Shown piece by piece: positions 1,869-17,740 of a DNA stretch of 51,836 nt. The notes under the pieces were generated by a model. The model had not been told where the DNA came from. It was given only the letters and a program-made list of their open reading frames with translations, and did no database searches. Both the position numbers and the translations under genes were made by a program. How positions within the stretch are numbered: the first letter of the stretch is position 1; every line of letters begins with the position of its first letter. The stretch lies in the sequence record NZ_CP085772.1; one strand, given 5' to 3'. This stretch comes from a plasmid.

Positions 1869-3140
1869 TTACGCCAGTTTCGCTGCAGGAATATCTGACC
1901 ATCGTGTCGTATAAGCAGGAGAAAGCATCTCCCGTTTCATTTGCCATTCCGGGGCAATACCCCGCCCCGCAAACCATACTTTACCCAGCCCTGAGTTGTT
2001 GATCCCGTCCAGAACCCTCATCAGCTCAGCACTGTGAGGGCGTGGCGGGCGTTCGTCGAACAGCTGCAGCTGCGAAACGCCGGAGCCGGTGAAGTCATTC
2101 AGCATAACTCCGGCTTTGGCATACCGGTGTCCATCCCTCCAGATACGCTCCAGAGCCGTTGTGGCGGCTGCAATGATGTCCCTGGTGTCCTGAGTGGGTG
2201 TAAGAAGTTTTTCCGTAGCCACGTTGCCGTAGTAAGGTTCTTTAACGGCGAACGGAGACGTTTTGATGAAAACGGAAATATGCCGGCAATACTGGTGCTC
2301 TTTACGCAGCTTTTCAGAGGCCCGCTCTGCGTGCTGACAGATAGCCTGACGGAGTGACTCGTACTCCGTGATCTTCACGCCAAAACTGCGGCTGCAGACA
2401 ATTTGCTGTTTCGTCGGAGGGGCTTCCTCAAGCGAAAGGCAGCTTTCCCCGTTCAGTTCACGTACCGTTCGCTCAAGGACCACAGAAAAATTTTTGCGGA
2501 TGAAGGCCGGGTTCGTCAGGGCGAGATCGAGCGCGGTCTTAATGCCCAGCACATTCAGCTTGCGTGCAATACGGTTACCCACCCCCCAGATTTCTTTAAC
2601 CGGCTGCAGTGAAAGCAGTTTCCGCGTTCTCTGCGGATTTCCCCTGGTCAGAGCAAGTACGCCACGAAGCTGTTTCCACTCTTTTGAGGCCCACTGGGCT
2701 GATTTTGCAAGGGTCTTCGTTGGTCCGGCGCCCACGCCAATGGTCAGGTGGGTACAGTCATACACGTGCTGACGCAGCTGCCGGCCGAAGTCCTCAAGCT
2801 CCATACAGTGCTCCACGCCGGTCAAATCGAGGAACATCTCATCAATTGAATACTGTTCCACTCTGGGGGCCAGTTCCTCCAGGCAGTTCATCACGCGCGC
2901 CGACATCGAGGCGTAAAGTTCATAGTTACTTGAAAACGAATATATTTTTTCCGGGTACCTTTCGTTTTTTATCTGAAACCACGGAGTTCCCATTTTGATC
3001 CAGGGCTTCGCCTCGGCACTGCGAGCGATTACGTTCCCGTCGTTGTTGCTCAGGACGACTATCGGCTTTCCTTTCAAATCCGGTCGGAAAACACGTTCAC
3101 AGCTGGCATAGAAGCTGTTCACATCGGCCAGGGCAAACAT
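1869..3140 (-). CDS. umuC: Error-prone DNA polymerase V subunit UmuC (Y-family polymerase)
   Basis: 423 aa. N-terminus [15 protein letters not shown] is diagnostic of UmuC/MucB. Confidence 0.9.
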
Positions 3141-3571
3141 CAGTACATCTCCCTCGGGCGGTGGATGATATGCGTGACGACGCCAAAGATATCAAGCTCG
3201 TCGGGGTCAGGATAAATCGGCGACCAGGAGGCATTCATGGGCTGCAGCGTCAGTCGAGGCGTCAGCAGAAGCCGTTTAACCGTAAACTCCCCCTGTACGC
3301 TGGCGACAACGATATCGCCGTGCCGCGGCTTTTCAGCACTGTCCACAACCAGCAGATCGCCATTGTACAGACTACCGTCCGCCATGCTGTCTCCGCTGGC
3401 ACGCAGGTAGTACGTCGCGCTCGGATGCCGTATGCAGTAATCATGGAGATCCAGATCGGACTCGACATAGTCAGCGGCAGGGCTGGGAAAACCGCAGCTG
3501 GCCAGATCGGCAAACAATGGATGGGCCTGTGGCGGGTGTTCTTTCCCGGTGCTGAAAAGCTGTAGCTTCAT
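3140..3571 (-). CDS. umuD: UmuD (LexA-like self-cleaving SOS protein)
   Basis: Start MKLQLF preceded by AGGAGG. Contains the S24 peptidase fold (GDSM..K). Overlaps umuC by 1 nt. The longer six-frame ORF (to 3952) is an artefactual upstream extension. Confidence 0.85.
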
Positions 3572-3596
3572 CTTTCCTCCTGACACTCTAATTTTA

Positions 3597-3612
3597 CTGG
3601 TTATGTATACAG
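3597..3612. promoter_or_regulatory. LexA (SOS) box-like palindrome CTGGTTATGTATACAG upstream of umuD
   Basis: CTG-N10-CAG palindrome. Other strand reads CTGTATACATAACCAG, one mismatch from CTGT-N8-ACAG. Lies ~25 bp upstream of the umuD ATG. Confidence 0.55.
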
Positions 3613-3613
3613 T

Positions 3614-5560
3614 GTGCGCCGGGAGACCGGTAGAGATCAAGGGGTGAAAGTCCCCGACCATTGAAGGACCAGCAATCCACAAGGTCCCCGAGTCATGCGT
3701 TGCATACCGCGAGGTATGGGGCGAAGCGTTGACAGGGGTGTTGACAGGCCAGCCATTGAGCCACGAAATGTATATTAAATTACCGGGTGCCGACGTTGTA
3801 CTGTTAACGGAAGGCAACATCATAGGGTGCGATACTGCGAGTGCCACATGGACCCGGCGGGGTCTGAGACCCTGGCATGTCAATACGATCTCTACGCGGG
3901 AACCGGGAGATCTCCCCTCTGACCATCTGCCAGTGTCGGAGATGGCCCGCACCGGGAAGACGAGGAGTCATAGCCGGTGATGTACGGAGAGGAGAAGTCG
4001 GACTCGCTCATAGTAGCGGCGAAGCAGGCGAACAACCCGAAAGGAGCGGAGTCAGTGGAGCGAAGGAGCGGGGCCAAGGGGAACGCGGAACAGCCACACA
4101 TGCGCCGGACACAGAGCCGGGAAAGCATGTCACAGAGGCTGTCACGCGTGCGGGAAGCTGCGAAGCAGCGGAAGAAAGAACGGTTTACAGCATTGTTCCA
4201 CCTGCTGACAGTCGAAGCACTGGAAGCCGCATTCCTCTCCCTGAGCAGGAAAGCGGCCGCCGGAGTGGATGGCATCAGGTGGATGGACTACGCCGGAAAC
4301 ATGAAGAACAACATAACAGATCTGCACCGGAGGCTACATCAGGGCAGCTACAGGGCGCAGCCCGGCAGGCGTCACTACATCCCAAAAGCGGATGGAAAAC
4401 AACGCCCGCTCGGCATCGCCTCGCTGGAGGACAAGATCGTCCAGTATGCGCTGGTGAAAATCCTGAACGCAGTCTATGAAAACGACTTTATGGGGTTCTC
4501 ATACGGGTTCAGACCCGGGCGAAGCCAGCACGATGCACTGGACGCACTGGCCACAGGGCTGGTACGCACTAACGTAAACTGGGTACTGGATGCCGACATC
4601 AGTCAGTTCTTTGACAGGGTGAGCCACGAATGGCTGATCAGGTTCACAGAGCATCGGATCGGCGACCGGAGGGTAATCAGGCTCATACGTAAGTGGCTCA
4701 CAGCCGGGACGTCGGAGGAGGGTCAATGGCGAGCAACGGAGGAAGGCACCCCACAGGGTGCGGTCATCTCACCGCTGCTGGCAAACATATACCTCCACTA
4801 CGTCTTCGATCTGTGGGCGCATCAGTGGCGACGTCGCTATGCCACAGGCAATGTGGTAATGGTCAGATACGCCGATGACATCGTCATCGGGTTCGACAAA
4901 CGATACGATGCCCGGCGCTTCCGTATAGCCATGCAGCGCAGACTGAGGGAGTTCGGACTCACGGTTCACCCGGAGAAAACCCGTCTGATGGAGTTCGGCC
5001 GCTTCGCTGCCGAAAACCGTGCCATCAGGGGAAAAGGCAAACCAGAAACGTTCAACTTCCTCGGGTTCACGCACATCAGCGGGAAAGATCGCAACGGCAG
5101 GTTCATGCTGATACGAAAGACCCGCCGGGATCGGATGACGGCAACTCTGAAAGCCATCAAAGACGGTCTGCGAAGGCGCTGGCATTACTCAATCCCCGAA
5201 CAGGGAAAATGGCTCAGGAGAGTGGTTCAGGGATACCTGAACTATCACTCGGTACCGGGCAACTTCCCCACCATGCAGAAGTTCAGGACACACGTAACAA
5301 ACCTCTGGCGCCGGGCGCTCAGGCGCAGGAGCCAGAAGGATGATACGACCTGGACGAAAGCAAACAAACTGGCAGCCGCATGGCTACCAAGGGTTCGGGT
5401 TCTTCATCCATGGCCTGTGGAGCGGTTCACCGCCAGACACCCGAGGCAGGAGCCCGGTGCGTAAATCGCGCACGCCGGGATCTGTGCGGGGGGTATCCGG
5501 TAACGGGTATCCCTACCGCGACATATTTAACAGCGTGACGATAATCCAGATCGCCTGCCG
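3614..5560 (+). mobile_element. Bacterial group II intron (retroelement), complete or nearly complete; 3' boundary approximate
   Basis: Starts GTGCG (or GTGTG at 3612). The 5' ribozyme domains span about 360 nt. The RT/maturase ORF lies in domain IV. About 96 nt remain after the ORF stop for domains V-VI before IS1 begins. Confidence 0.75.
3977..5464 (+). CDS. ltrA: Group II intron-encoded reverse transcriptase/maturase (no recognisable C-terminal HNH endonuclease domain)
   Basis: RT motifs present, including YADD (VMVRYADDIVIGF) and the X/maturase region. 495 aa. Confidence 0.9.
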   Translation: MMYGEEKSDSLIVAAKQANNPKGAESVERRSGAKGNAEQPHMRRTQSRESMSQRLSRVREAAKQRKKERFTALFHLLTVEALEAAFLSLSRKAAAGVDGIRWMDYAGNMKNNITDLHRRLHQGSYRAQPGRRHYIPKADGKQRPLGIASLEDKIVQYALVKILNAVYENDFMGFSYGFRPGRSQHDALDALATGLVRTNVNWVLDADISQFFDRVSHEWLIRFTEHRIGDRRVIRLIRKWLTAGTSEEGQWRATEEGTPQGAVISPLLANIYLHYVFDLWAHQWRRRYATGNVVMVRYADDIVIGFDKRYDARRFRIAMQRRLREFGLTVHPEKTRLMEFGRFAAENRAIRGKGKPETFNFLGFTHISGKDRNGRFMLIRKTRRDRMTATLKAIKDGLRRRWHYSIPEQGKWLRRVVQGYLNYHSVPGNFPTMQKFRTHVTNLWRRALRRRSQKDDTTWTKANKLAAAWLPRVRVLHPWPVERFTARHPRQEPGA

Positions 5561-5756: not shown

Positions 5757-6812
5757 GCTTTGTTGAATAAATCAGATTTCGGGTAAGTCTCCCCCGTAGC
5801 GGGTTGTGTTTTCAGGCAATACGCACGCTTTCAGGCATACCTGCTTTCGTCATTTTGTTCAGCGCTCGTACCAGGGCCATAGCCTCCGCAACCTGACCAT
5901 CGTAGTCACGCAGCGTCAGTGAACCCCCGAACAGCTGTTTTACCCGGTACATCGCCGTTTCCGCTATCGAGCGACGGTTGTAATCTGTTGTCCATTTCCA
6001 CCGCGCATTACTCCCGGTCAGCCGCTGATTAGCCACTGCACGGTTACGGTCTGCATATTCACCGGGCCAGTAACCCGCACCTTTTCGGGGTGGGCTAAGC
6101 GCGCTGATTTTCTTACGCCGCAGTTCATCGTGACAGAGCCGGGTGTCGTAAGCGCCGTCTGCCGATGCTGCCCTGATTTTTCTGTGAGTCTGCCGGATAA
6201 GACCCGGGAAGGCTTCTGAGTCCGTCACATTGTTCAGCGACAGGTCTGCACAGATGATTTCATGTGTTTTGCTGTCAACTGCCAGATGCAACTTTCGCCA
6301 TATACGACGGCGTTCCTGGCCATGCTTTTTGACTTTCCACTCGCCTTCACCGAAGACCTTCAGCCCGGTGGAATCAATCACCAGATGCGCGATTTCACCC
6401 CGGGTGAACGTTTTGAAACTGACATTAACCGACTTTGCGCGCCTGCTGACACTGGTGTAATCCGGGCAGCGCAACGGAACATTCATCAGTGTAAAAATGG
6501 AATCAATAAAGCCCTGCGCAGCGCGCAGGGTCAGCCTGAACACGCGTTTAATGACCAGAACGGTGGTGATGGCGAGATCAGAATAGCGCTGAGGTCTTCC
6601 CCGTGATGAAGGCGTTGCCGACTCATACCAGGCCTGAATAGCTTCATCATCCAGCCAGAAAGTTATGGAGCCACGGTTGATGAGGGCTTTATTGTAGGTG
6701 GGCCAGTTGGTGATTTTGAACTTTTGCTTTGCCACGGAATGGTCTGTGTTGTCGGGAGGATGCGTGATCTGATCCTTCAACTCAGCAAAAGTTCGATTTA
6801 TTCAACAAAGCC
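5757..6812 (-). mobile_element. IS903B (IS5 family) copy 1
   Basis: 18-bp terminal IRs GGCTTTGTTGAATAAATC at both ends. Length about 1056 bp. Confidence 0.9.
5812..6780 (-). CDS. tnpA: IS903B transposase
   Basis: 322 aa, N-terminus MKDQITHPPDNTDHSVAKQKF, DDE motif present. Confidence 0.9.
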   Translation of the reverse strand: MKDQITHPPDNTDHSVAKQKFKITNWPTYNKALINRGSITFWLDDEAIQAWYESATPSSRGRPQRYSDLAITTVLVIKRVFRLTLRAAQGFIDSIFTLMNVPLRCPDYTSVSRRAKSVNVSFKTFTRGEIAHLVIDSTGLKVFGEGEWKVKKHGQERRRIWRKLHLAVDSKTHEIICADLSLNNVTDSEAFPGLIRQTHRKIRAASADGAYDTRLCHDELRRKKISALSPPRKGAGYWPGEYADRNRAVANQRLTGSNARWKWTTDYNRRSIAETAMYRVKQLFGGSLTLRDYDGQVAEAMALVRALNKMTKAGMPESVRIA

Positions 6813-6841
6813 CATTAGATCTGCTTTTGCCAAAAAAACGG

Positions 6842-7279
6842 CTAGTTTTTTCTGGGTTTACCCAAACCAAAGGCACCGGCATTCACTATAAACGAGGCCT
6901 TTCTGATCGGCGTATCGATATCAAATATGGGGTTTTCAGCACGCCTTCTTTCAAAGTACTTATTTCTCTCCGATTCATTTTTAAAAGCGCTACCTGTCCT
7001 TGCAATCCTCTCCTGAATAAGCATCTTTTCATGCTCAGCCTTTTTGGTTGAGTTGGCCTTAGCGAGATTCTTTTCAAGGGATTTCGTATGCTTTTTTATA
7101 TGCTTTCTCAACCTAGCTTTATGGCCAAATGAGAGTTTACATATCGGACAAGTGAATAATTCTTCCATAAGCTTCATGAGTGTAAGGGGAAGGTTATATT
7201 TACCATAGCATTCCTTGTCCGAACTGCCATGCGATGGTCCACCGGGGCAATGAGGCAAAGCCGTTGTCTGTGGAAGCAC
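6842..7279 (-). CDS. Small basic protein with a canonical C2H2 zinc-finger motif (F-x-C-x2-C-x3-F-x5-L-x2-H-x3-H); start codon uncertain
   Basis: FTCPICKLSFGHKARLRKHIKKH followed by a K/R/E-rich tail. A near-identical copy lies at 15128..15604. Confidence 0.5.
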   Translation of the reverse strand: MLPQTTALPHCPGGPSHGSSDKECYGKYNLPLTLMKLMEELFTCPICKLSFGHKARLRKHIKKHTKSLEKNLAKANSTKKAEHEKMLIQERIARTGSAFKNESERNKYFERRRAENPIFDIDTPIRKASFIVNAGAFGLGKPRKN

Positions 7280-7349
7280 TACGCGGCATGATGAGCGTCG
7301 TCAGTTGCACACCGGCAAAGACGTGAAACACTTTTAACCGGAGCCAGTC

Positions 7350-7628
7350 ATGCGCGTTGCCGAAAGCATCATCCTCGATGCCCTCACTCGCGGAGGATGC
7401 ATCAAAACCTTTTACCGCATATCCTCACGGCAGGCTGCTGAATCGGCCACGCGGATACCTGAGGGGTATATTCTGGAGTCGCCCGGCGAGCGGGAAGATA
7501 TTGTGCTCAGCCATGCGGACTTTCATGCACTGGAGAAGCAGCTGGAGCAGAAGGAAACCTGGGAGCAGGTGGTCGGTGTGACCTGTTTTGGTGGGGCAAC
7601 CTGGCAGCTGAGAGCCGGGTCCGTGTGA
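7350..7628 (+). CDS. Hypothetical 92-aa protein (duplicated at 15636..15917)
   Basis: ORF with start MRVAESII. Conserved in both copies of the module. Confidence 0.4.
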   Translation: MRVAESIILDALTRGGCIKTFYRISSRQAAESATRIPEGYILESPGEREDIVLSHADFHALEKQLEQKETWEQVVGVTCFGGATWQLRAGSV

Positions 7629-7890
7629 TGAGTGGCTGAGGTGCCGAAATAATTCTTTTATTTCAGCAGTGGCATTTCTGCAGTCCACGACTACAGTCTT
7701 CTCACCGGATGCATTGTGACTGTCCCACACTCCGGGGATTTGCTCCCTTTGACGAACCACAATTGTGTCCGGCCAGCCTTTCACGCTGGCTTTTTTTCGC
7801 ACAACTCTGTTCAGACTGAGTCTGAATGGTCATCTCCCTGCCCTGCCCGTTTACGCTGATGGCCAGACAGGGAGCGCCAGGAAAGAATGG

Positions 7891-8844
7891 TTAGTGGCGG
7901 ATCTGCGCCAGGTCGTCTTCCGTCAGGCCGGTCATTTTCATAACGGTATTGCGGTCAATGCCGTTATGCAGCATGGTACGGGCAATTTTCAGAGTGGCCT
8001 GACGCTCACCTTCTGAACGGCCCTTTTCAATACCCCGTTGTTCACCGAGCTGGATGCCCTGCTCAATCCCCTTCTGGATACCCTTCTGCTCAAGCTGTTG
8101 TGCGATGGTCATGAGTGCGTCTCCGTGTTGCGGCACACGCTGTGCCAGTTCGCGTACAAAGGCTTCGGCGTCAGCTGTCTCGCCTGCCTGGAGTATATAG
8201 TGTACCAGCGATATGACCTGGGATGAAGACAGATAGCCGGCCAGCAAAATGGGCGCCAGCCGGTCAACCAGTTCAGCGAGGTCGCGCTGGTGAATATGTT
8301 TCTGCAGTAAGGTCAGAGCGGCCATACTGCGGTGGCCGGCGATGTCATCATCCGGAATAACGGTCACATCAACCAGCGGGAAAGCGCCGCTGTAGAGTGT
8401 GCCTGCCAGCGCCGGGTCGTCAAACTCATCCAGCCAGCGGGTGGAATACGGATACGGGCTGCGTTTACCGGTATAGAACAGGACCGGTATCACCAGGGGC
8501 AGCTTCTTATGGCCCGCTTCCAGATGGCGCTGCATGGCGGCTACCGCGTAACGTATCAGGCGAAACGCCATGTGCCTGTCAGGCGACGACTGGTGCTCAA
8601 TGAGCACGTGAACGTAGCCGTCACCACCGGTGGTTTTCAGGCTGTAGAGGACGTCGCTGAAATACTGGCGGAGGTCATCCTCAACGAACGAGCCGGATTC
8701 CAGTTTCAGCGTGCTGAGGTCGCAGATGGCCTGCAGCTCAGCGGGCAAATGCAACTTCATAAAATCCCGGGCAATATCCGGCTGCGTCAGGAACTGCCTG
8801 AACGTGGCATCGTGGGGTGTGGGGGTGCTGTTTTTCTTCATCAT
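7891..8844 (-). CDS. rpn: Rpn-family recombination-promoting nuclease (YhgA-like PD-(D/E)XK transposase_31)
   Basis: Start MMKKNSTPTPHDATFRQFL. C-terminal IQKGIEQGIQLGEQRGIEKG repeat typical of the RpnA-E family. Confidence 0.75.
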   Translation of the reverse strand: MMKKNSTPTPHDATFRQFLTQPDIARDFMKLHLPAELQAICDLSTLKLESGSFVEDDLRQYFSDVLYSLKTTGGDGYVHVLIEHQSSPDRHMAFRLIRYAVAAMQRHLEAGHKKLPLVIPVLFYTGKRSPYPYSTRWLDEFDDPALAGTLYSGAFPLVDVTVIPDDDIAGHRSMAALTLLQKHIHQRDLAELVDRLAPILLAGYLSSSQVISLVHYILQAGETADAEAFVRELAQRVPQHGDALMTIAQQLEQKGIQKGIEQGIQLGEQRGIEKGRSEGERQATLKIARTMLHNGIDRNTVMKMTGLTEDDLAQIRH

Positions 8845-9013: not shown

Positions 9014-9634
9014 TTATTTGTTAGCGCTGGAGCAGACCCGAATTACTGTCATTTTAGAAACGCCCGCCAGGCGAGCTGTTTCTCGCAGCGATTTTCCATT
9101 GACCAGGCGCAGAGTGCGTATCAGTTCATGTTTCTGCGCATCGGCCACCCTGCCCCGGTATTTTCCTTCAGCTTTCGCCTTACTGATACCCTCTGACTGT
9201 CGACGTCGACGGTCTTCGTAATCTTTTCGGGCAATAGCGGCCAGCATATCCAGCATCATGCCATTTACGGCCTTCAGCATGCTTCGGGTAAAGTCATCAC
9301 TTACTGTGCTGGATAGCGCCAGATGGCTGGTCGGTAGATCAAGACTGACGATGGCCAGCTGCTTGTCTGTAATTTGCTTTCTGAGTGTCTCCCAGCCTGC
9401 ATCATCCAGGCGAGTGAGCCTGTCGACCTGTTCAATGAGAATCACATCACCAGGTTCCGCATCACCAAGAAGCCTGATCAGTTCAGGAAGATTCATTGTC
9501 GTACCGGAGACATTATCGATATACCAGCCAGCAATACGGTGTCCATGTTGGTTTGCAAACGCCTTCAGTGCATTTTTTGCCCGGCTGGCATCCTGTTCTG
9601 AAGTGGATGCCCGGAGGTAACCAAAAACGAACAT
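9014..9634 (-). CDS. Serine recombinase (resolvase/invertase family)
   Basis: MFVFGYLRASTSEQ catalytic-Ser N-terminus. C-terminal HTH. Confidence 0.8.
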   Translation of the reverse strand: MFVFGYLRASTSEQDASRAKNALKAFANQHGHRIAGWYIDNVSGTTMNLPELIRLLGDAEPGDVILIEQVDRLTRLDDAGWETLRKQITDKQLAIVSLDLPTSHLALSSTVSDDFTRSMLKAVNGMMLDMLAAIARKDYEDRRRRQSEGISKAKAEGKYRGRVADAQKHELIRTLRLVNGKSLRETARLAGVSKMTVIRVCSSANK

Positions 9635-9635
9635 T

Positions 9636-9740
9636 TTTTGTCCTAGTGGTAACATTTAAGTGGTACTGTTCATTATGGTATCACTTAAGTGGTAACAATA
9701 AAACTACCCGATACCTCTTGAGGTGGTACATATGAACTAT
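9636..9740. promoter_or_regulatory. Putative res site: four copies of AGTGGTA / TTAAGTGGTA motif upstream of the resolvase gene
   Basis: agtggtaaca, ttaagtggtac, ttaagtggtaac and gaggtggtaca lie within about 100 bp. Confidence 0.4.
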
Positions 9741-10250: not shown

Positions 10251-11084
10251 TCAGTTAGTAACGTCGGAATCTTCATTCTCAGAATGACCCTTTCTCCAGC
10301 CCGCTGCAAATTCAGACGGTGTCTGATAATTCAGCGTGGAGTGCGGGCGGCATTCGTTATAATCCTGCCGCCAGTCATTAATAATTTTCCTGGCATGAAC
10401 GATATCGCTGAACCAGTGCTCATTCAAACATTCATCGCGAAATCGTCCGTTAAAGCTCTCAATAAATCCGTTCTGCGTTGGCTTGCCCGGCTGGATTAAG
10501 CGCAACTCAACACCATGCTCAAAGGCCCATTGATCCAGTGCACGGCAAGTGAACTCCGGCCCCTGGTCAGTTCTTATCGTCGCCGGATAGCCTCGAAACA
10601 GTGCAATGCTGTCCAGAATACGCGTGACCTGAACGCCTGAAATCCCAAAGGCAACAGTGACCGTCAGGCATTCCTTTGTGAAATCATCGACGCAGGTAAG
10701 ACACTTGATCCTGCGACCGGTGGAAAGTGCGTCCATGACGAAATCCATCGACCAGGTCAGATTGGGCGCCGCCGGACGGAGCAGCGGCAGACGTTCTGTT
10801 GCCAGCCCTTTACGACGTCTTCTGCGTTTTACGCCCAGGCCACTGAGGTGATAAAGCCGGTACACGCGCTTATGATTAACATGAAGCCCTTCACGGCGCA
10901 GCAACTGCCAAATACGACGGTAGCCAAAACGCCTGCGCTCCAGTGCCAGCTCAGTGATGCGCCCTGATAAATGCGCATCAGCAGCCGGACGGTGAGCCTC
11001 ATAGCGGCAGGTCGACAGGGATAAACCTGTAAGCCTGCAGGCACGACGTTGCGACAGACCGGTCGCATCACACATCAACATCAC
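10251..11084 (-). CDS. IS3-family transposase OrfB (DDE integrase core), expressed by -1 frameshift with OrfA
   Basis: 277 aa, rve-type core with DDE motif. Confidence 0.85.
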
Positions 11085-11107
11085 GGCTTCCCGCTTCTGG
11101 TCTGTCG

Positions 11108-11371
11108 TCAGTACTTTCGCCCAAGAGCCACCTGAAGCGCCTCTTTATCCAGCATGGCTTCGGCAAGCAGCTTCTTGAGTCTGGTGTTCTCTTCCTCAAG
11201 CGACTTCAGGCGCTTAACTTCAGGCACCTCCATACCGCCATACTTCTTACGCCAGGTGTAAAACGTGGCATCGGAAATGGCATGCTTGCGGCAGAGTTCA
11301 CGGGCGGGTACCCCAGCTTCGGCTTCGCGGAGAATACTGATGATCTGTTCGTCGGAAAAACGCTTCTTCAT
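11108..11371 (-). CDS. IS3-family transposase OrfA (HTH)
   Basis: 87 aa, [20 protein letters not shown]... leucine-zipper tail. Confidence 0.85.
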
Positions 11372-13324: not shown

Positions 13325-13714
13325 ATGAATAAACCAGCAGATCTGAAACCCCGCAACTTATCGGCTGCTGTCAGATTGCGCCTAAATGAAATCGAGAACT
13401 GGCTGGACAGAGGGCTAACGCGGCATGAAATTGCTGAAATCCTCGACAGCGAATACAGCTTTTCGGTAACAGCCAAAGGGCTTGAGATGGCACTGTATAG
13501 AACGCGGCAAAACCGAAAAAATGTATTACACAATACACATGATAAGAGTAGCGCGAAGGGTGCAGCGGAAAGTGTATTGCACAATACACAACCGTCTGAG
13601 CCTGAAGCGCAGGAAAGTGAAAAAGCAGAGAGTCCCGGCATTATTGATAAAGAATTCTTCAATAAAATCGGTGAGGATTTCAACCCTAAGAAGTTCAACA
13701 AAAAATTCTGGTAA
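13325..13714 (+). CDS. Small HTH-like DNA-binding protein (ParR/StbA-like candidate), C-terminus clipped by IS1 (last 4 codons + stop supplied by the IS1 IR)
   Basis: 129 aa. RLRLNEIENWLDRGLTRHEIAEIL is HTH-like. The ORF runs into the IS1 terminal IR. Confidence 0.45.
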   Translation: MNKPADLKPRNLSAAVRLRLNEIENWLDRGLTRHEIAEILDSEYSFSVTAKGLEMALYRTRQNRKNVLHNTHDKSSAKGAAESVLHNTQPSEPEAQESEKAESPGIIDKEFFNKIGEDFNPKKFNKKFW

Positions 13715-13724
13715 TGACTCCAAC

Positions 13725-14108
13725 TTACTGATAGTGTTTTATGTTCAGATAATGCCCGATGACTTTGTCATGCAGCTCCACCGATTTTGAGAACGACAGC
13801 GACTTCCGTCCCAGCCTTGCCAGATGCTGCCTCAGATTCAGGTTATGCCGCTCAATTCGCTGCGTATATCGCTTGCTGATTACGTGCAGCTTTCCCTTCA
13901 GGCGTGATTCATAAAGCGGCCAGCCATCCGTCATCCATACCACGACCTCAAAGGCCGACAGCAGGCCCGGAAGACGCTCCAGCGTGGCCAGCGTGCGTTC
14001 ACCGAATACGTGCGCCACAACCGTCCTCCGTATCCTGCCAGCGCTGGCGTGATTTAGCGCCGACGTAACCCCACTGTTCGTCCATTTCCGCGCAAACAAT
14101 GACGTCAC
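13725..14108 (-). CDS. insB: IS1 InsB' (fused to InsA by frameshift)
   Basis: IS1 transposase C-terminal frame. Confidence 0.8.
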
Positions 14109-14129
14109 TGCCCGGTTGTATGCGTGAGT

Positions 14130-14405
14130 TTACCGACTGCGGCCTGAGTTTTTTAAGTGTCGTAAAATCGTGTTGAGGCCAACGCCCATAATGCGTGCAC
14201 TGGCGCGACATCCGACGCCATTCATGGCCATATCAATAATTTTCTGGTGTGTACCGGGCTGAGAGGCGGTGTAAGTGAACTGAAGCTGCCATGTTTTACG
14301 GCAGTGAGAGCAGAGATAGCGCTGATGTCCGGCAGTACTTTTACCGTTACGCACCACGCCTTCAGTAGCTGAACAGGAGGGACAGCTGATAGAAACAGAA
14401 GCCAC
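14130..14405 (-). CDS. insA: IS1 InsA
   Basis: 91 aa [23 protein letters not shown]. Confidence 0.85.
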
Positions 14406-14471
14406 TGGAGCACCTCAAAACCACCATCATACACTAAATCAGCAAGTTGGTAGCATTACCAAAAAGTGAAT

Positions 14472-15104
14472 AACTTAAAAACATCGGCGCAAGCGCCTCA
14501 AAAGTAGCTCCCATCGCTTCGCGACGGGCCCCGACCGGAGAACCACATTAGTTACAGCATTCAAAAGGAAGTTCATCATAAACCAGCGCCGGTTTGCCGG
14601 CCAGGTGCCCCTCCCCACCACTGAAAAGCGCCGCCGCCCCCGGCCGAAGGCCGGGGAACACCATCGCTTTAGAATGGCGGATGTTGTAACTAGATCTTGT
14701 CATTGCTGTGGGTGGTGTTGCTTTTCGTTCTGGCGTACACGCTCGTAAGCGGCCCTAACGGCCCGCTAACGCGGAGATACGCCCCGACTGCGGCTATCGC
14801 CTTGTCGTGACCACTCCGACCGCGCACAGCAGCTTCTGTATCGTTTTTAGCGGGTTTGTTCTGGGCTTAGCAGTGTGGGGGATTATTACGGCTGAAGCCG
14901 TAATGCTTTTTTCGTCCTCGCTTCGCTGCGGGGGTCTCCGGCGCATGGCGCCTCCCATGCGCTGACGCGCATCAAAAACCCGTCCCCTGCGCCACTTGTG
15001 TCTGACGCACGCGAGAGTCCGCTGCGGCAAAAAACAAGAAGAGAGCTAGACGAAGGTCGCTCAGCTCCCCGTAATTTTTTATATACTCACCACGGGGACA
15101 TTAG
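14472..15104. other. GC-rich non-coding segment with multiple perfect hairpins; possible oriT/leading-region (ssi/Frpo-like) remnant
   Basis: Hairpins ccccggcc-gaa-ggccgggg, gcggccc-taac-gggccgc and ggcgcatggcgcc. Also ctgtgggtggtgttgcttttcg, which resembles an F-family nic region. Confidence 0.25.
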
Positions 15105-15127
15105 ATCTGCTTTTGCCAAAAAAACGG

Positions 15128-15604
15128 CTAGTTTTTTCTGGATTTACCCAAACCAAAGGCACCGGCATTCACTATAAACGAGGCCTTTCTGATCGGCGTA
15201 TCGATATCAAATATGGGGTTTTCAGCACGCCTTCTTTCAAAGTACTTATTTCTCTCCGATTCATTTTTAAAAGCGCTACCTGTCCTTGCAATCCTCTCCT
15301 GAATAAGCATCTTTTCATGCTCAGCCTTTTTGGTTGAGTTGGCCTTAGCGAGATTCTTTTCAAGGGATTTCGTATGCTTTTTTATATGCTTTCTCAACCT
15401 AGCTTTATGGCCAAATGAGAGTTTACATATCGGACAAGTGAATAATTCTTCCATAAGCTTCATGAGTGTAAGGGGAAGGTTATATTTACCATAGCATTCC
15501 TTGTCCGAACTGCCATGCGATGGTCCACCGGGGCAATGAGGCAAAGCCGTTGTCTGTGGAAGCACTACGCGGCATGATGAGCGTCGCCAGTTGCACACCG
15601 GCAA
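15128..15604 (-). CDS. C2H2 zinc-finger-motif protein, copy 2 (start uncertain)
   Basis: Near-identical to 6842..7279 (one K->S change near the C-terminus). Confidence 0.5.
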   Translation of the reverse strand: MPVCNWRRSSCRVVLPQTTALPHCPGGPSHGSSDKECYGKYNLPLTLMKLMEELFTCPICKLSFGHKARLRKHIKKHTKSLEKNLAKANSTKKAEHEKMLIQERIARTGSAFKNESERNKYFERRRAENPIFDIDTPIRKASFIVNAGAFGLGKSRKN

Positions 15605-15635
15605 AGACGTGAAACACTTTTAACCGGAGCCAGTC

Positions 15636-15917
15636 ATGCGCGTTGCCGAAAGCATCATCCTCGATGCCCTCACTCGCGGAGGATGCATCAAAACCTTTTA
15701 CCGCATATCCTCACGGCAGGCTGCTGAATCGGCCACGCGGATACCTGAGGGGTATATTCTGGAGTCGCCCGGCGAGCGGGAAGATATTGTGCTCTCGCGC
15801 GCGGACTTTCATGCGCTGGAGAAGCTGCTGGAGCAGAAGGAAACCTGGGAGCAGGTGGTCGGTGTGACCTGTTTTGGTGGGGCAACATGGCAGCTGAGAC
15901 CGACTGTACAGAGCTGA
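15636..15917 (+). CDS. Hypothetical 93-aa protein, copy 2
   Basis: Same as 7350..7628 with a few substitutions. Confidence 0.4.
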   Translation: MRVAESIILDALTRGGCIKTFYRISSRQAAESATRIPEGYILESPGEREDIVLSRADFHALEKLLEQKETWEQVVGVTCFGGATWQLRPTVQS

Positions 15918-15970: not shown

Positions 15971-16582
15971 ATGACGCTGACAGAAAAAACAGGCCATCTG
16001 GCATGGTGTGCACTGGTCGCGCTGGCACTGGCCAGACAGGAGCAGGGAGAACTCTCTCCCGCACAGGAAAATCTCTTTCTCACCCGCTGGCTCGCGGCAG
16101 CACTGAAGCAACGGCGATTCTCGCGCGATGTGGCACAGGATATCGGGTGGTTACTGAATCAGGGGCGTTTGCTGGGTGTGAGAGCTAAGCTGGCCGACAA
16201 ACTGGGCTATGTCTGGCGCTCCTGCAGCGGCGAGTTGACTGAACAGAACGACATGTTCCGCCTGACGTATGCGCTGGAAACAGCGAAAGACATGGGCTGG
16301 AATTACCGCGTAATGAGCGACAGAGAATGGGCCGGACGATATGCTTTGGTACTCAATCCTGGAGTAAACGGTGTTTATCTCTTACGGACAAACCTTGATG
16401 CCGCTTTTGACGACAATGGCCAACAGACAAATCCGCTGACAGTACGTCTGACAGGGAACGTAACTGGGATAATGAAACTGTTAAATCGCTGTGGCTGGCA
16501 GGCTGAGCCTGAGTCTGATGCCTCCCTGCCCCACCAGTTTTCACTGATGGCCCGGCAGGGAGTGCCAGGAAAGGGGGATTAG
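15971..16582 (+). CDS. Hypothetical 203-aa protein (present only in copy 2 of the module)
   Basis: Strong RBS GGGAGG. No recognisable motif. Confidence 0.45.
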   Translation: MTLTEKTGHLAWCALVALALARQEQGELSPAQENLFLTRWLAAALKQRRFSRDVAQDIGWLLNQGRLLGVRAKLADKLGYVWRSCSGELTEQNDMFRLTYALETAKDMGWNYRVMSDREWAGRYALVLNPGVNGVYLLRTNLDAAFDDNGQQTNPLTVRLTGNVTGIMKLLNRCGWQAEPESDASLPHQFSLMARQGVPGKGD

Positions 16583-16712
16583 TGGCGGATTTGTGCCAGG
16601 TCATCTTCAGTCAGACCGGTCATTTTCATGACAGTATTGCGGTCAATGCCGTTCTGCAGCATGGTACGGGCAATTTTCAGAGTGGCCTGACGCTCACCTT
16701 CTGAACGGCCTA
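16583..16712 (-). pseudogene. Rpn-family nuclease 3' remnant (last ~42 codons only)
   Basis: About 90% identical to 7891..8020. Upstream part replaced by unrelated sequence. Confidence 0.6.
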
Positions 16713-16920
16713 TTAGCGTGTGCTCCGGTGGTTTGCACATGCGCAAATTTTTCAGCCCAAAGGAGGCTAATCATCACGGGGATTACGTTCAAATCCCCTG
16801 CGCCCTCTTGCTGCCCATTCAGCATTGAGTACTGAATCGCCACGGGTTTAACAGACACCTCAGAGTCATTTAAGATGGCTTAAAGAGAGGTGCCCATGAG
16901 CGGTAAGCGTTATCCCGAAG

Positions 16921-17740
16921 GGCACTGTTGCAAAGTTAGCGATGAGGCAGCCTTTTGTCTTATTCAAAGGCCTTACATTTCAAAAACTCTGCTTACCAGG
17001 CGCATTTCGCCCAGGGGATCACCATAATAAAATGCTGAGGCCTGGCCTTTGCGTAGTGCACGCATCACCTCAATACCTTTGATGGTGGCGTAAGCCGTCT
17101 TCATGGATTTAAATCCCAGCGTGGCGCCGATTATCCGTTTCAGTTTGCCATGATCGCATTCAATCACGTTGTTCCGGTACTTAATCTGTCGGTGTTCAAC
17201 GTCAGACGGGCACCGGCCTTCGCGTTTGAGCAGAGCAAGCGCGCGACCATAGGCGGGCGCTTTATCCGTGTTGATGAATCGCGGGATCTGCCACTTCTTC
17301 ACGTTGTTGAGGATTTTACCCAGAAACCGGTATGCAGCTTTGCTGTTACGACGGGAGGAGAGATAAAAATCGACAGTGCGGCCCCGGCTGTCGACGGCCC
17401 GGTACAGATACGCCCAGCGGCCATTGACCTTCACGTAGGTTTCATCCATGTGCCACGGGCAAAGATCGGAAGGGTTACGCCAGTACCAGCGCAGCCGTTT
17501 TTCCATTTCAGGCGCATAACGCTGAACCCAGCGGTAAATCGTGGAGTGATCGACATTCACTCCGCGTTCAGCCAGCATCTCCTGCAGCTCACGGTAACTG
17601 ATGCCGTATTTGCAGTACCAGCGTACGGCCCACAGAATGATGTCACGCTGAAAATGCCGGCCTTTGAATGGGTTCATGTGCAGCTCCATCAGCAAAAGGG
17701 GATGATAAGTTTATCACCACCGACTATTTGCAACAGTGCC
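16921..17740 (-). mobile_element. IS26 copy A (820 bp)
   Basis: 14-bp IRs GGCACTGTTGCAAA at both ends. Confidence 0.95.
16973..17677 (-). CDS. tnpA: IS26 transposase Tnp26
   Basis: MNPFKGRHFQRDIILWAVRWY... 234 aa from the MNPF start. Confidence 0.95.
   Translation of the reverse strand: MNPFKGRHFQRDIILWAVRWYCKYGISYRELQEMLAERGVNVDHSTIYRWVQRYAPEMEKRLRWYWRNPSDLCPWHMDETYVKVNGRWAYLYRAVDSRGRTVDFYLSSRRNSKAAYRFLGKILNNVKKWQIPRFINTDKAPAYGRALALLKREGRCPSDVEHRQIKYRNNVIECDHGKLKRIIGATLGFKSMKTAYATIKGIEVMRALRKGQASAFYYGDPLGEMRLVSRVFEM

Follow-up and report, generated by a model that had tools for sequence, protein, structure and literature searches.

Single-finger proteins such as GAGA factor require basic segments flanking the finger for DNA binding, and Ros, which occurs in alpha-proteobacteria, has a larger globular fold. 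The Ros/MucR family consists of bacterial proteins in which DNA is bound through one Cys2His2 zinc site flanked by basic residues; in Ros, the spacer between the cysteine and histidine pairs is 9 residues long and a third histidine is present, and MucR is an H-NS-like silencer (PMC9779718). Another family that is relevant for the locus described here are the Rpn proteins, toxic antiphage nucleases that are controlled by small proteins (PMC10400941). Examination of a 51,836-nucleotide stretch of plasmid DNA (sequence record NZ_CP085772.1; this whole stretch is hereinafter the window) showed that it carries two copies of a gene for a strongly basic, 108-amino acid protein with a predicted C2H2 finger that resembles the classical fingers of eukaryotes rather than those of the Ros/MucR proteins. 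According to the account that we develop below, this protein is maintained by selection, is encoded in a mobile cassette that, in the Klebsiella lineage, was inserted once, in an HNH gene, and functions as a nucleic-acid-binding accessory factor of plasmids; taken as a whole, this account has, in our judgment, about an even chance of being correct.

Two open reading frames (ORFs) on the minus strand of the window, 6842-7279 (145 amino acids) and 15128-15604 (158 amino acids), contain FTCPICKLSFGHKARLRKHIKKH, as an earlier note on this DNA had pointed out from the ORF list. Both ORFs are indeed present but, as gene extents, they are longer than the real gene. The coding sequence (CDS) assigned by the PGAP annotation pipeline is 327 nucleotides long, and the diverged homologs all start at the equivalent of MEELF, so the real gene encodes 108 amino acids and occupies, with its stop codon, positions 6842-7168 (copy 1) and 15128-15454 (copy 2), both on the minus strand; an alternative ATG for copy 1 is found at 7177, three codons upstream of the MEELF start. 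Copy 2 is the common allele, which ends in GLGKSRKN, and the two copies differ in one codon, S105P in copy 1. The duplication that includes the gene spans ~806 bp (6813-7617 vs 15099-15902) at ~98.6-100% identity, and is accompanied by a second duplicated stretch of 189-207 bp (7816/7834-8022 vs 16506/16522-16710) at 88-89% identity. In the comparison with a relative that is 77% identical (contig L003), the ratio of nonsynonymous to synonymous substitution rates (dN/dS) is 0.20, and in comparisons with the relatives at 45-49% identity, the synonymous sites are saturated. Because, in addition, the zinc ligands are conserved in the relatives (see below), the ORF is to be regarded as a selected protein-coding gene; by its pattern of substitutions, it is real and evolves under purifying selection, as opposed to being a chance reading frame.

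Residues 5-27 of the encoded protein (7088-7156 in copy 1 and 15374-15442 in copy 2, minus strand) follow the pattern F5-x-C7-x2-C10-x3-F14-x5-L20-x2-H23-x3-H27, that is, display both the spacing and the aromatic/leucine core of the classical finger. The statement of the earlier note that the spacing is classical, not that of Ros/MucR, is borne out: the spacer between the cysteines and the histidines consists of 12 residues, as opposed to 9 in Ros (C-x2-C-x9-H-x3-H-H), a sub-threshold match to the Pfam family zf-C2H2 (PF00096) is detected at E ~8e-5 and 23.3-23.4 bits, and no Ros/MucR match is found in Pfam at E up to 0.1. Two points on which that note let its reading depend, namely, retention of the cysteines and histidines in homologs and prediction of a beta-beta-alpha fold, gave concordant results. 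C7, C10, H23 and H27 are invariant in the relatives P0008, P0021 and P0026, and are also present in a shifted frame of the L007 fragment; conservation of the ligands and the hydrophobic core extends to three relatives, which are 77%, 49% and 45% identical, and to a fourth with a frameshift. L20 is invariant across the four full-length relatives, and position 14 is occupied by F, V or L. The AlphaFold2 (AF2) model of the 108-residue protein has a mean predicted local distance difference test score (pLDDT) of 77, the block means for residues 1-30 ranging from 83 to 95, and contains strands at residues 5-6 and 13-14 and helices at residues 17-58 and 65-78. When this model was compared to the PDB with Foldseek, the top 50 matches were all classical C2H2 fingers, with 27-46% identity, ~37 of the 50 superimposing over 23-30 columns at a root-mean-square deviation not exceeding 1.0 Å and the others at 1.1-2.1 Å; the Foldseek E-values are not significant because the finger domain is very short. 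The search of the family profile against the PDB retrieved ZBTB7A, CTCF, Zif268 and other fingers, with E-values down to 9.6e-6. When 1.84 billion representative proteins were searched exhaustively with HMMER, the matches outside the family were eukaryotic poly-zinc-finger proteins that, like the PDB matches, aligned only to profile positions 2-28. Together, the conserved pattern and the predicted structure support the view that residues 5-27 adopt the beta-beta-alpha fold of a single classical C2H2 finger, which does not belong to the Ros/MucR type.

The rest of the protein is less readily classified. In the AF2 model, the finger helix runs on as a long charged helix of ~40 residues, and is followed by a second helix with a conserved pattern, GSxFxN..ERNxYF, and then by a disordered C-terminal tail. 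With 26 lysines and arginines vs 12 aspartates and glutamates, the protein is strongly basic (pI 10.2, range 10.0-10.3; net charge ~+14), the charge being concentrated in the first 30 residues (+6, including the finger; residues 31-60 contribute +3) and in the tail. The latter, GAFGLGK(S/P)RKN, comprises residues 98-108 (6845-6877 in copy 1 and 15131-15163 in copy 2, minus strand), is found strictly at the C-terminus (GAFGLGKSRK[NH]) and is predicted to be disordered, with pLDDT below 50 at residues 88-103 and 106-108. In six relatives, G98, G101, L102, G103, K104, R106 and K107 of the tail are invariant, and position 100 is F or Y. The Ser105Pro replacement of copy 1 (6851-6853) falls within the otherwise invariant GLGKSRK segment and accompanies the arrangement with a complete rpn gene that is found in 67 plasmids (see below). 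We also considered the tail as a counterpart of the 'GLGK' peptide with which ParB-like proteins activate ParA; this candidate was set aside given that there is no ParA partner nearby and that the resemblance is limited to four residues.

The family of this protein is small. There are 25 clusters among 5.8 billion clustered proteins, most of them truncated or frameshifted forms of one Klebsiella allele, and to these, the exhaustive HMMER search contributes only P0026, at 45% identity, together with two fragments of the C-terminal part, for a total of about six relatives. One of these fragments (L007, ~40% identity) has the finger just upstream, in a shifted frame, and the other (L008) probably also has a finger upstream, with the frame broken. 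Among the plasmids in PLSDB, 807 carry the gene; 739 of these come from Klebsiella, 515 are typed as conjugative, and for ~95% of the plasmid copies, identity is 99% or higher. No copy was found in the 185,579 species-representative genomes of GTDB or in the phage collections IMG/VR and INPHARED. In metagenomes, 28 of the 30 loci contain the same Klebsiella allele at 99-100% identity. Hundreds of PGAP-annotated records already label the product 'C2H2-type zinc finger protein'. The literature yielded nothing functional on the protein or its accessions, the sole mention being as a passenger in a 5,408-bp IS26-flanked module reported within a resistance region (PMC7913926).

The comparison of the window with sister plasmids sheds light on the origin of the gene. 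In the IncFII(K) plasmids L048-L051, the flanks are the same, and the position of the C2H2 gene is taken by a gene for a 243-amino acid HNH protein that is co-directional with a 93-amino acid ORF located downstream of it. This HNH gene is part of a small nuclease islet that further comprises the 93-amino acid ORF, DUF2913 and a convergent rpn, and adjoins the IncFII(K) origin flank. In a blastn comparison, positions 14992-15501 of the window (510 bp, minus strand) stand in place of positions 4037-4870 of L049 (834 bp), which include most of the HNH gene, and homology to L049 resumes within the last 93 bp of that gene. The 510-bp segment, which is also matched by L003, is the second copy of a cassette in which the CDS is preceded by a short 5' leader and followed by a 3' hairpin; in the first copy (6813-7215, minus strand), the 3' end is cut by IS903. 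Immediately next to both copies, on the plus strand, lies the 3' remnant of the HNH gene (7216-7326 and 15502-15612), which translates to CPNCHAMVHRGNEAKPLSVEALRGMMS..., is homologous to the HNH protein of L049 and accounts for the greater part of what looks like an intergenic spacer. The intact gene (L049 4232-4963) encodes a protein that matches the Pfam HNH family (E 2.6e-7) and the PADLOC model mREase_IV for type IV methyl-directed restriction (E 2.9e-8). Because the HNH gene is intact in the sister IncFII(K) plasmids, the arrival of the cassette destroyed a putative type IV restriction gene, and because the insertion junction is identical in copies 1 and 2, both descend from a single insertion event; the copies were later parted by recombination in the DUF2913/rpn region together with the activity of IS903, IS1 and IS26. 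The GC content of the C2H2 CDS is 0.40 vs 0.55-0.58 for the 92-amino acid ORF, DUF2913 and rpn genes that surround it. Judging by composition and boundaries, the C2H2 gene is a foreign, AT-rich, self-contained cassette of ~0.45-0.5 kb in which a hairpin or terminator follows the leader and the CDS.

Related cassettes are found on a 2-kb plasmid, beside a ribbon-helix-helix (RHH) gene, and in a small-plasmid backbone with Phd/YoeB. The 77% relative is located on the 2,019-bp contig L003 (Klebsiella pneumoniae GCA_054180725.1), which can be regarded as a circular ~2-kb plasmid because homology to the window crosses the contig ends. The block that is common to the window (15493-15034) and L003 spans 460 bp at 85% identity and includes 39 bp before the ATG, the CDS and 94 bp after it, with the hairpin. 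The only genes called on L003 are the C2H2 gene and a gene for a 134-amino acid RHH/DUF1778-type protein. A gene-free stretch of ~520 bp (L003 2-523) is common to many enterobacterial plasmids of 1.9-7 kb, at ~83-94% identity depending on the record, and ~1.2 kb of L003, including the RHH/DUF1778-type gene, recurs in a Klebsiella plasmid of 2,173 bp, where two other small ORFs take the place of the C2H2 gene. The 49% relative (L002) lies between flanks shared with the 4,976-bp Klebsiella plasmid L054, which contains different DNA at this position; the block specific to the gene in L002 consists of the C2H2 gene and no more than 23 bp before and 83 bp after it. The other relatives have as neighbors a resolvase gene (L006), DUF2913 and IS66 (L007) and a DUF5375 gene (L008). 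An integron-type gene cassette was considered and rejected: inspection by eye revealed no attC core sites (RYYYAAC/GTTRRRY) at the ends, and there is no 3' hairpin common to the five lineages. The cassette-like spread onto very small plasmids suggests that the protein is of direct benefit to the plasmids that carry it.

We propose that the C2H2 protein is probably a nucleic-acid-binding factor. It would bind nucleic acid, most likely DNA, via the finger and the adjoining basic helix, and the conserved C-terminal tail might be a short peptide that docks a partner or has an effector function. Overall, the protein could serve as a small plasmid-borne regulator or a DNA-coating accessory factor, possibly involved in counter-defense, that is not part of the Rpn machine. 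The regulatory or counter-defense role is kept alive by the nuclease-islet setting of the gene, the adjacency of a second family member to DUF2913 and the retention of the gene on very small plasmids. An anti-defense function is thus possible, although hardly through mimicry of DNA: ArdA/Ocr-type mimics have an acidic surface, and the present protein, with its strongly basic character, is unlikely to use this mechanism. A bolder version, which we consider distinctly improbable, is that the protein defines a new class of accessory factors in which the finger, perhaps an anciently transferred eukaryotic one, tethers the GAFGLGKSRK peptide to DNA and so neutralises or regulates nuclease immunity, such as that of Rpn, HNH or the partner DUF2913, or protects plasmid DNA in some other way, the whole moving as a 0.45-kb unit.

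Several observations weigh against the reading of this protein as a DNA-binding accessory factor with a classical finger. The zf-C2H2 score of 23.3 bits is below the gathering threshold of 25.2 bits, so that the protein does not qualify as a family member by the Pfam threshold, and the AF2 structure is a prediction built on a 3-sequence alignment. The affinity of a solitary C2H2 finger for DNA is usually low, and such fingers can have RNA or proteins as targets as well. The C-terminal 80 residues have no match in Pfam at E up to 10 or in the PDB profile search, which leaves the effector half of the protein unexplained. The long helix has no clear heptad pattern, so dimerisation through it is not supported. 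In the intergenic spacer, no binding site, operator repeat or consensus sigma-70 promoter was detected beside the gene, nor is a Shine-Dalgarno sequence evident. Finally, adjacency of the C2H2 gene to DUF2913 recurs once, in L007, where the DUF2913 protein is 36% identical; the occurrence of two diverged members, in this lineage and in L007, beside DUF2913 hints at a link to the islet that would not be explained if the neighbors were accidental.

This last point brings up the genes next to the cassette. All neighbors listed in the earlier note, namely, the 92/93-amino acid ORFs, the Rpn gene, the 203-amino acid ORF and the 3' remnant of rpn, are present. The 92-amino acid ORF, annotated as 'cytoplasmic protein', is located at 7350-7628 (plus strand), and its 93-amino acid version at 15636-15917. 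In copy 2, it is followed by the DUF2913 gene (15971-16582, plus strand; 203 amino acids; PF11140, E 1.4e-18), a convergent partner of rpn. Copy 1 is followed by a complete gene for an Rpn (YhgA-like PD-(D/E)XK) nuclease (7891-8844, minus strand), assigned to this family by the PF04754 (E 6.5e-85) and TIGR01784 (E 1.6e-80) domains along with a repeat-bearing, C-terminal RpnS region, and then by a serine recombinase/resolvase gene (9014-9655, minus strand), which comes after rpn in other DUF2913-Rpn loci as well. The repeats of the Rpn protein are four residues long (KGIQ KGIE QGIQ LGEQ RGIE KGRS EGER; 7996-8079, minus strand), are located in the C-terminal helix and belong to the hypervariable type reported to tune RpnS-RpnL pairing. 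The 203-amino acid ORF had been taken for an intercalation in copy 2; in fact, the last 17 codons of DUF2913 are detectable by translation in copy 1, at 7835-7885, and the persistence of this remnant implies that copy 1 lost the gene, not that copy 2 gained it. What remains of rpn in copy 2 (16579-16740, minus strand) is an RpnS-like remnant of 53 amino acids that corresponds to the last ~42 codons of rpn and has been annotated as a gene in other records; precomputed matches assign PF27070 to this ORF on L045 and L049. It is kept beside DUF2913 in ~670 plasmids, where genes of unknown function for 330 and 51 amino acids replace the nuclease part, and could be either a remnant or a free-standing, RpnS-like antitoxin. 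The copy 2 arrangement, found in 672 PLSDB plasmids, starts with IncFII(K) repA and an origin flank of ~1 kb, followed by the C2H2 gene (convergent with repA), the 93-amino acid ORF and DUF2913 (both divergent from the C2H2 gene) and, convergent on these, the 53-amino acid Rpn remnant, the 330-amino acid gene and the 51-amino acid gene. The copy 1 arrangement, with the complete rpn and the resolvase, is found in 67 plasmids. NCBIfam contains no model for the C2H2 protein, the 92-amino acid ORF or DUF2913, whereas four PHROGs families, all of unknown function, match these three and the 330-amino acid neighbor very strongly; the AF2 model of DUF2913 has a pLDDT of 45 and is unusable.

Small genes in defense islets are often regulators or anti-defense genes. 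An alternative reading of the locus is that the C2H2 protein is functionally tied to the nuclease islet, either as a transcriptional regulator or by directly inhibiting the activity of Rpn, HNH or DUF2913, in an immunity or counter-defense role. The gene is located among those for the mREase_IV-like HNH protein, DUF2913 and Rpn, the ~40% relative in L007 also adjoins a DUF2913 gene, and the toxic Rpn nucleases are under the control of small proteins (PMC10400941). However, DUF2913 and rpn form a conserved convergent pair, with ends overlapping by 4 bp and followed by a resolvase gene and parAB, in Salmonella, Escherichia coli/Klebsiella and Pantoea plasmid loci that lack the C2H2 gene (L039, L040-L044), and the adjacent rpn is but the 53-amino acid remnant in the ~670 plasmids mentioned above. 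Furthermore, the cassette destroyed the HNH gene instead of joining it, the other relatives reside on tiny plasmids beside an RHH gene, a toxin-antitoxin pair or a resolvase, and the C2H2 gene is discordant with the islet in GC content. The C2H2-Rpn module envisaged in the earlier note is thus not supported as a functional unit; the cassette was inserted next to a pre-existing block of the 93-amino acid ORF, DUF2913 and Rpn, and the synteny that the note suggested looking for is not seen in the diverged homologs, as there is no rpn on L002, L003, L006, L007 or L008, all short contigs of 1.6-5.2 kb. Given this distribution, the adjacency of the C2H2 and Rpn genes appears to be largely an accident of history, and a dedicated role of the C2H2 protein in the islet is unlikely. 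The DUF2913-rpn partnership itself might not have been described previously, considering that the only two papers found to mention DUF2913 do not include the study of Rpn. Beside the C2H2/DUF2913 pair of L007, there are three consecutive genes (2804-5105, minus strand; 276, 141 and 348 amino acids) without Pfam domains; the 276-amino acid protein shows a marginal PADLOC match to PDC-S54 (E 1e-3), and the trio may be a candidate defense operon.

The location of the gene next to the replicon brings forward another explanation, namely, that the protein is an accessory factor of replication or copy-number control, loosely like Rom, that binds origin DNA or an antisense-RNA control duplex. In IncFII(K) plasmids, the C2H2 gene lies ~1 kb from repA and points to the origin flank, in L003, it points into the shared 520-bp gene-free region, presumably the origin, and a basic finger-plus-helix could bind structured RNA. 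The flank in the window (14461-14991, no strand assigned) is homologous to the stretch downstream of repA, in particular, to L004, where repA ends ~360 bp further, and to L049 3647-4036; IS1 cuts its left side. However, ~350 bp of this flank are common to thousands of IncFII(K) plasmids without the C2H2 cassette, and the sister small plasmids likewise replicate without the gene. No RNA family, including ColE1-type RNAI, was found on the small contigs at the Rfam gathering thresholds, and a ColE1-type origin for L003 was rejected on this ground. The H-x3-H spacing, moreover, is that of the classical, DNA-type finger, unlike the jaz/matrin type that binds double-stranded RNA. A role in replication is therefore quite improbable.

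Conceivably, the CxxC motif followed by a long helix could serve not as a finger but as a protein-protein or metal-bridged oligomerisation device, like the zinc hook of Rad50/SMC. The only PADLOC match of the C2H2 protein, a weak one, is to the central coiled coil of LmuB (E 6.3e-5, residues 5-78), and the AF2 model indeed places a long helix after CxxC. Nevertheless, both histidines are invariant at the classical spacing, the model and all its structural neighbors are beta-beta-alpha fingers, and there are no heptads; besides, only six residues precede the first cysteine, C7, so no antiparallel coiled coil can flank a hook. The hook was accordingly rejected as a Rad50/SMC-type device, and we regard oligomerisation of this kind as having little chance of being the function of the protein. 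A search of the BFVD fold collection returned only weak, finger-level matches.

Another possibility that follows from the plasmid context is an early anti-defense protein of the leading-region type, perhaps delivered by conjugative type IV secretion via its basic tail. The protein is small, restricted to plasmids and endowed with a conserved, basic C-terminus, and the conjugative type of 515 of the 807 carrier plasmids is in line with this scenario. The earlier note had seen, in the GC-rich region that precedes copy 2, a resemblance to a remnant of an origin of transfer (oriT) or leading region, but this hairpin-rich DNA is the IncFII(K) flank downstream of repA. In pKDO1, the gene order is traI-traX-finO-...-repA-C2H2. 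In F-type transfer, the replicon end, on the finO-traX-traI side, enters the recipient late, far from the leading region. Taken together, this order and this polarity place the C2H2 gene, which follows repA, outside the oriT-proximal region where leading-region anti-defense genes are located; the presence of the gene on non-mobilizable 2-5 kb plasmids and its basic charge, at odds with the DNA-mimic class, make the scenario all the more difficult to uphold, and we consider it very improbable. No more credible is the idea that the gene is a hitch-hiking ORF without a current function, spread solely with a block that IS26 mobilises on successful Klebsiella plasmids, because the near-identity of most plasmid copies, the many truncated or frameshifted database entries and the lack of an evident consensus promoter or Shine-Dalgarno sequence are countered by the purifying selection, with protein conservation across saturated synonymous divergence, and by the retention of the gene as one of only two on a 2-kb plasmid.

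The mobile elements that delimit the two copies in the window are an IS5/IS903-family element (5812-6812, minus strand), which truncates the copy 1 cassette 29 bp past the stop codon, IS1 (13710-14460, minus strand), the left boundary of the copy 2 segment, and IS26 (16921-17740, minus strand), its right boundary. Elsewhere in the window, domains D1-D4 of a group II intron are detected at 3647-3872 (plus strand; RF02005, 186.6 bits), followed by a 495-amino acid ORF (3977-5464, plus strand) that is annotated as the ltrA reverse transcriptase/maturase in a near-identical record. An IS3-family element at ~10251-11371 contains an IS1222-type programmed-frameshift element (11024-11141, minus strand; RF00383, 156.6 bits). 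A 129-amino acid ORF between an IS5-family copy and IS1 (13325-13714, plus strand) matches the plasmid stabilisation protein StbA (NCBIfam NF041290, E 2.3e-60).

Over 800 plasmids with available sequences, most of them IncFII(K)/IncR resistance plasmids of clinical Klebsiella, carry the C2H2 gene, and the protein represents a clean bacterial case of a classical, as opposed to Ros-type, finger, which makes it a convenient model for single C2H2 fingers outside eukaryotes. If it is true that the protein modulates nuclease defenses or the handling of plasmid DNA, a new fold would be added to the repertoire of plasmid counter-defense and regulation. The partnership of DUF2913 with rpn could, for its part, matter for the biology of Rpn toxins and antitoxins.

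The protein can also be compared with known systems. To the classical fingers of the TFIIIA/Zif268 type (PF00096), it is linked by the identical C-x2-C-x12-H-x3-H arrangement, the phenylalanine/leucine core, a predicted fold that is mostly within 1 Å over 23-30 columns and 30-46% identity to single fingers of ZBTB7A, BCL11A, Zif268 and CTCF. It differs from them in having a single finger, at the extreme N-terminus, without a TGEKP linker, in that this finger continues into a long charged helix followed by a unique C-terminal region, and in its occurrence on enterobacterial plasmids. From Ros/MucR, it is set apart by the 12-residue spacer and the lack of a match to that family. With the DNA-binding domain of Drosophila GAGA factor and with plant SUPERMAN, it shares the combination of one classical finger and adjacent basic segments (here, +6 and then +3), although these are eukaryotic nuclear factors with no sequence relation to the plasmid protein beyond the finger, and DNA binding by the latter is a prediction. 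The Rpn family of toxins with intragenic antitoxins, which includes the plasmid-encoded RpnP2, has a full member at 7891-8844 and an RpnS end at 16579-16740, whereas the C2H2 protein shows no similarity to Rpn and its linkage to these genes is secondary. Viruses of prokaryotes also encode small C2H2-domain proteins, such as PDB 2wbt ('B-129') and those of Citrobacter phage Merlin and Halorubrum tailed virus 4. By structure or profile, these are weak neighbors that have no significant full-length similarity to the plasmid protein and do not possess the GAFGLGKSRK module, but they demonstrate that classical-type fingers already reside on mobile elements of bacteria and archaea.

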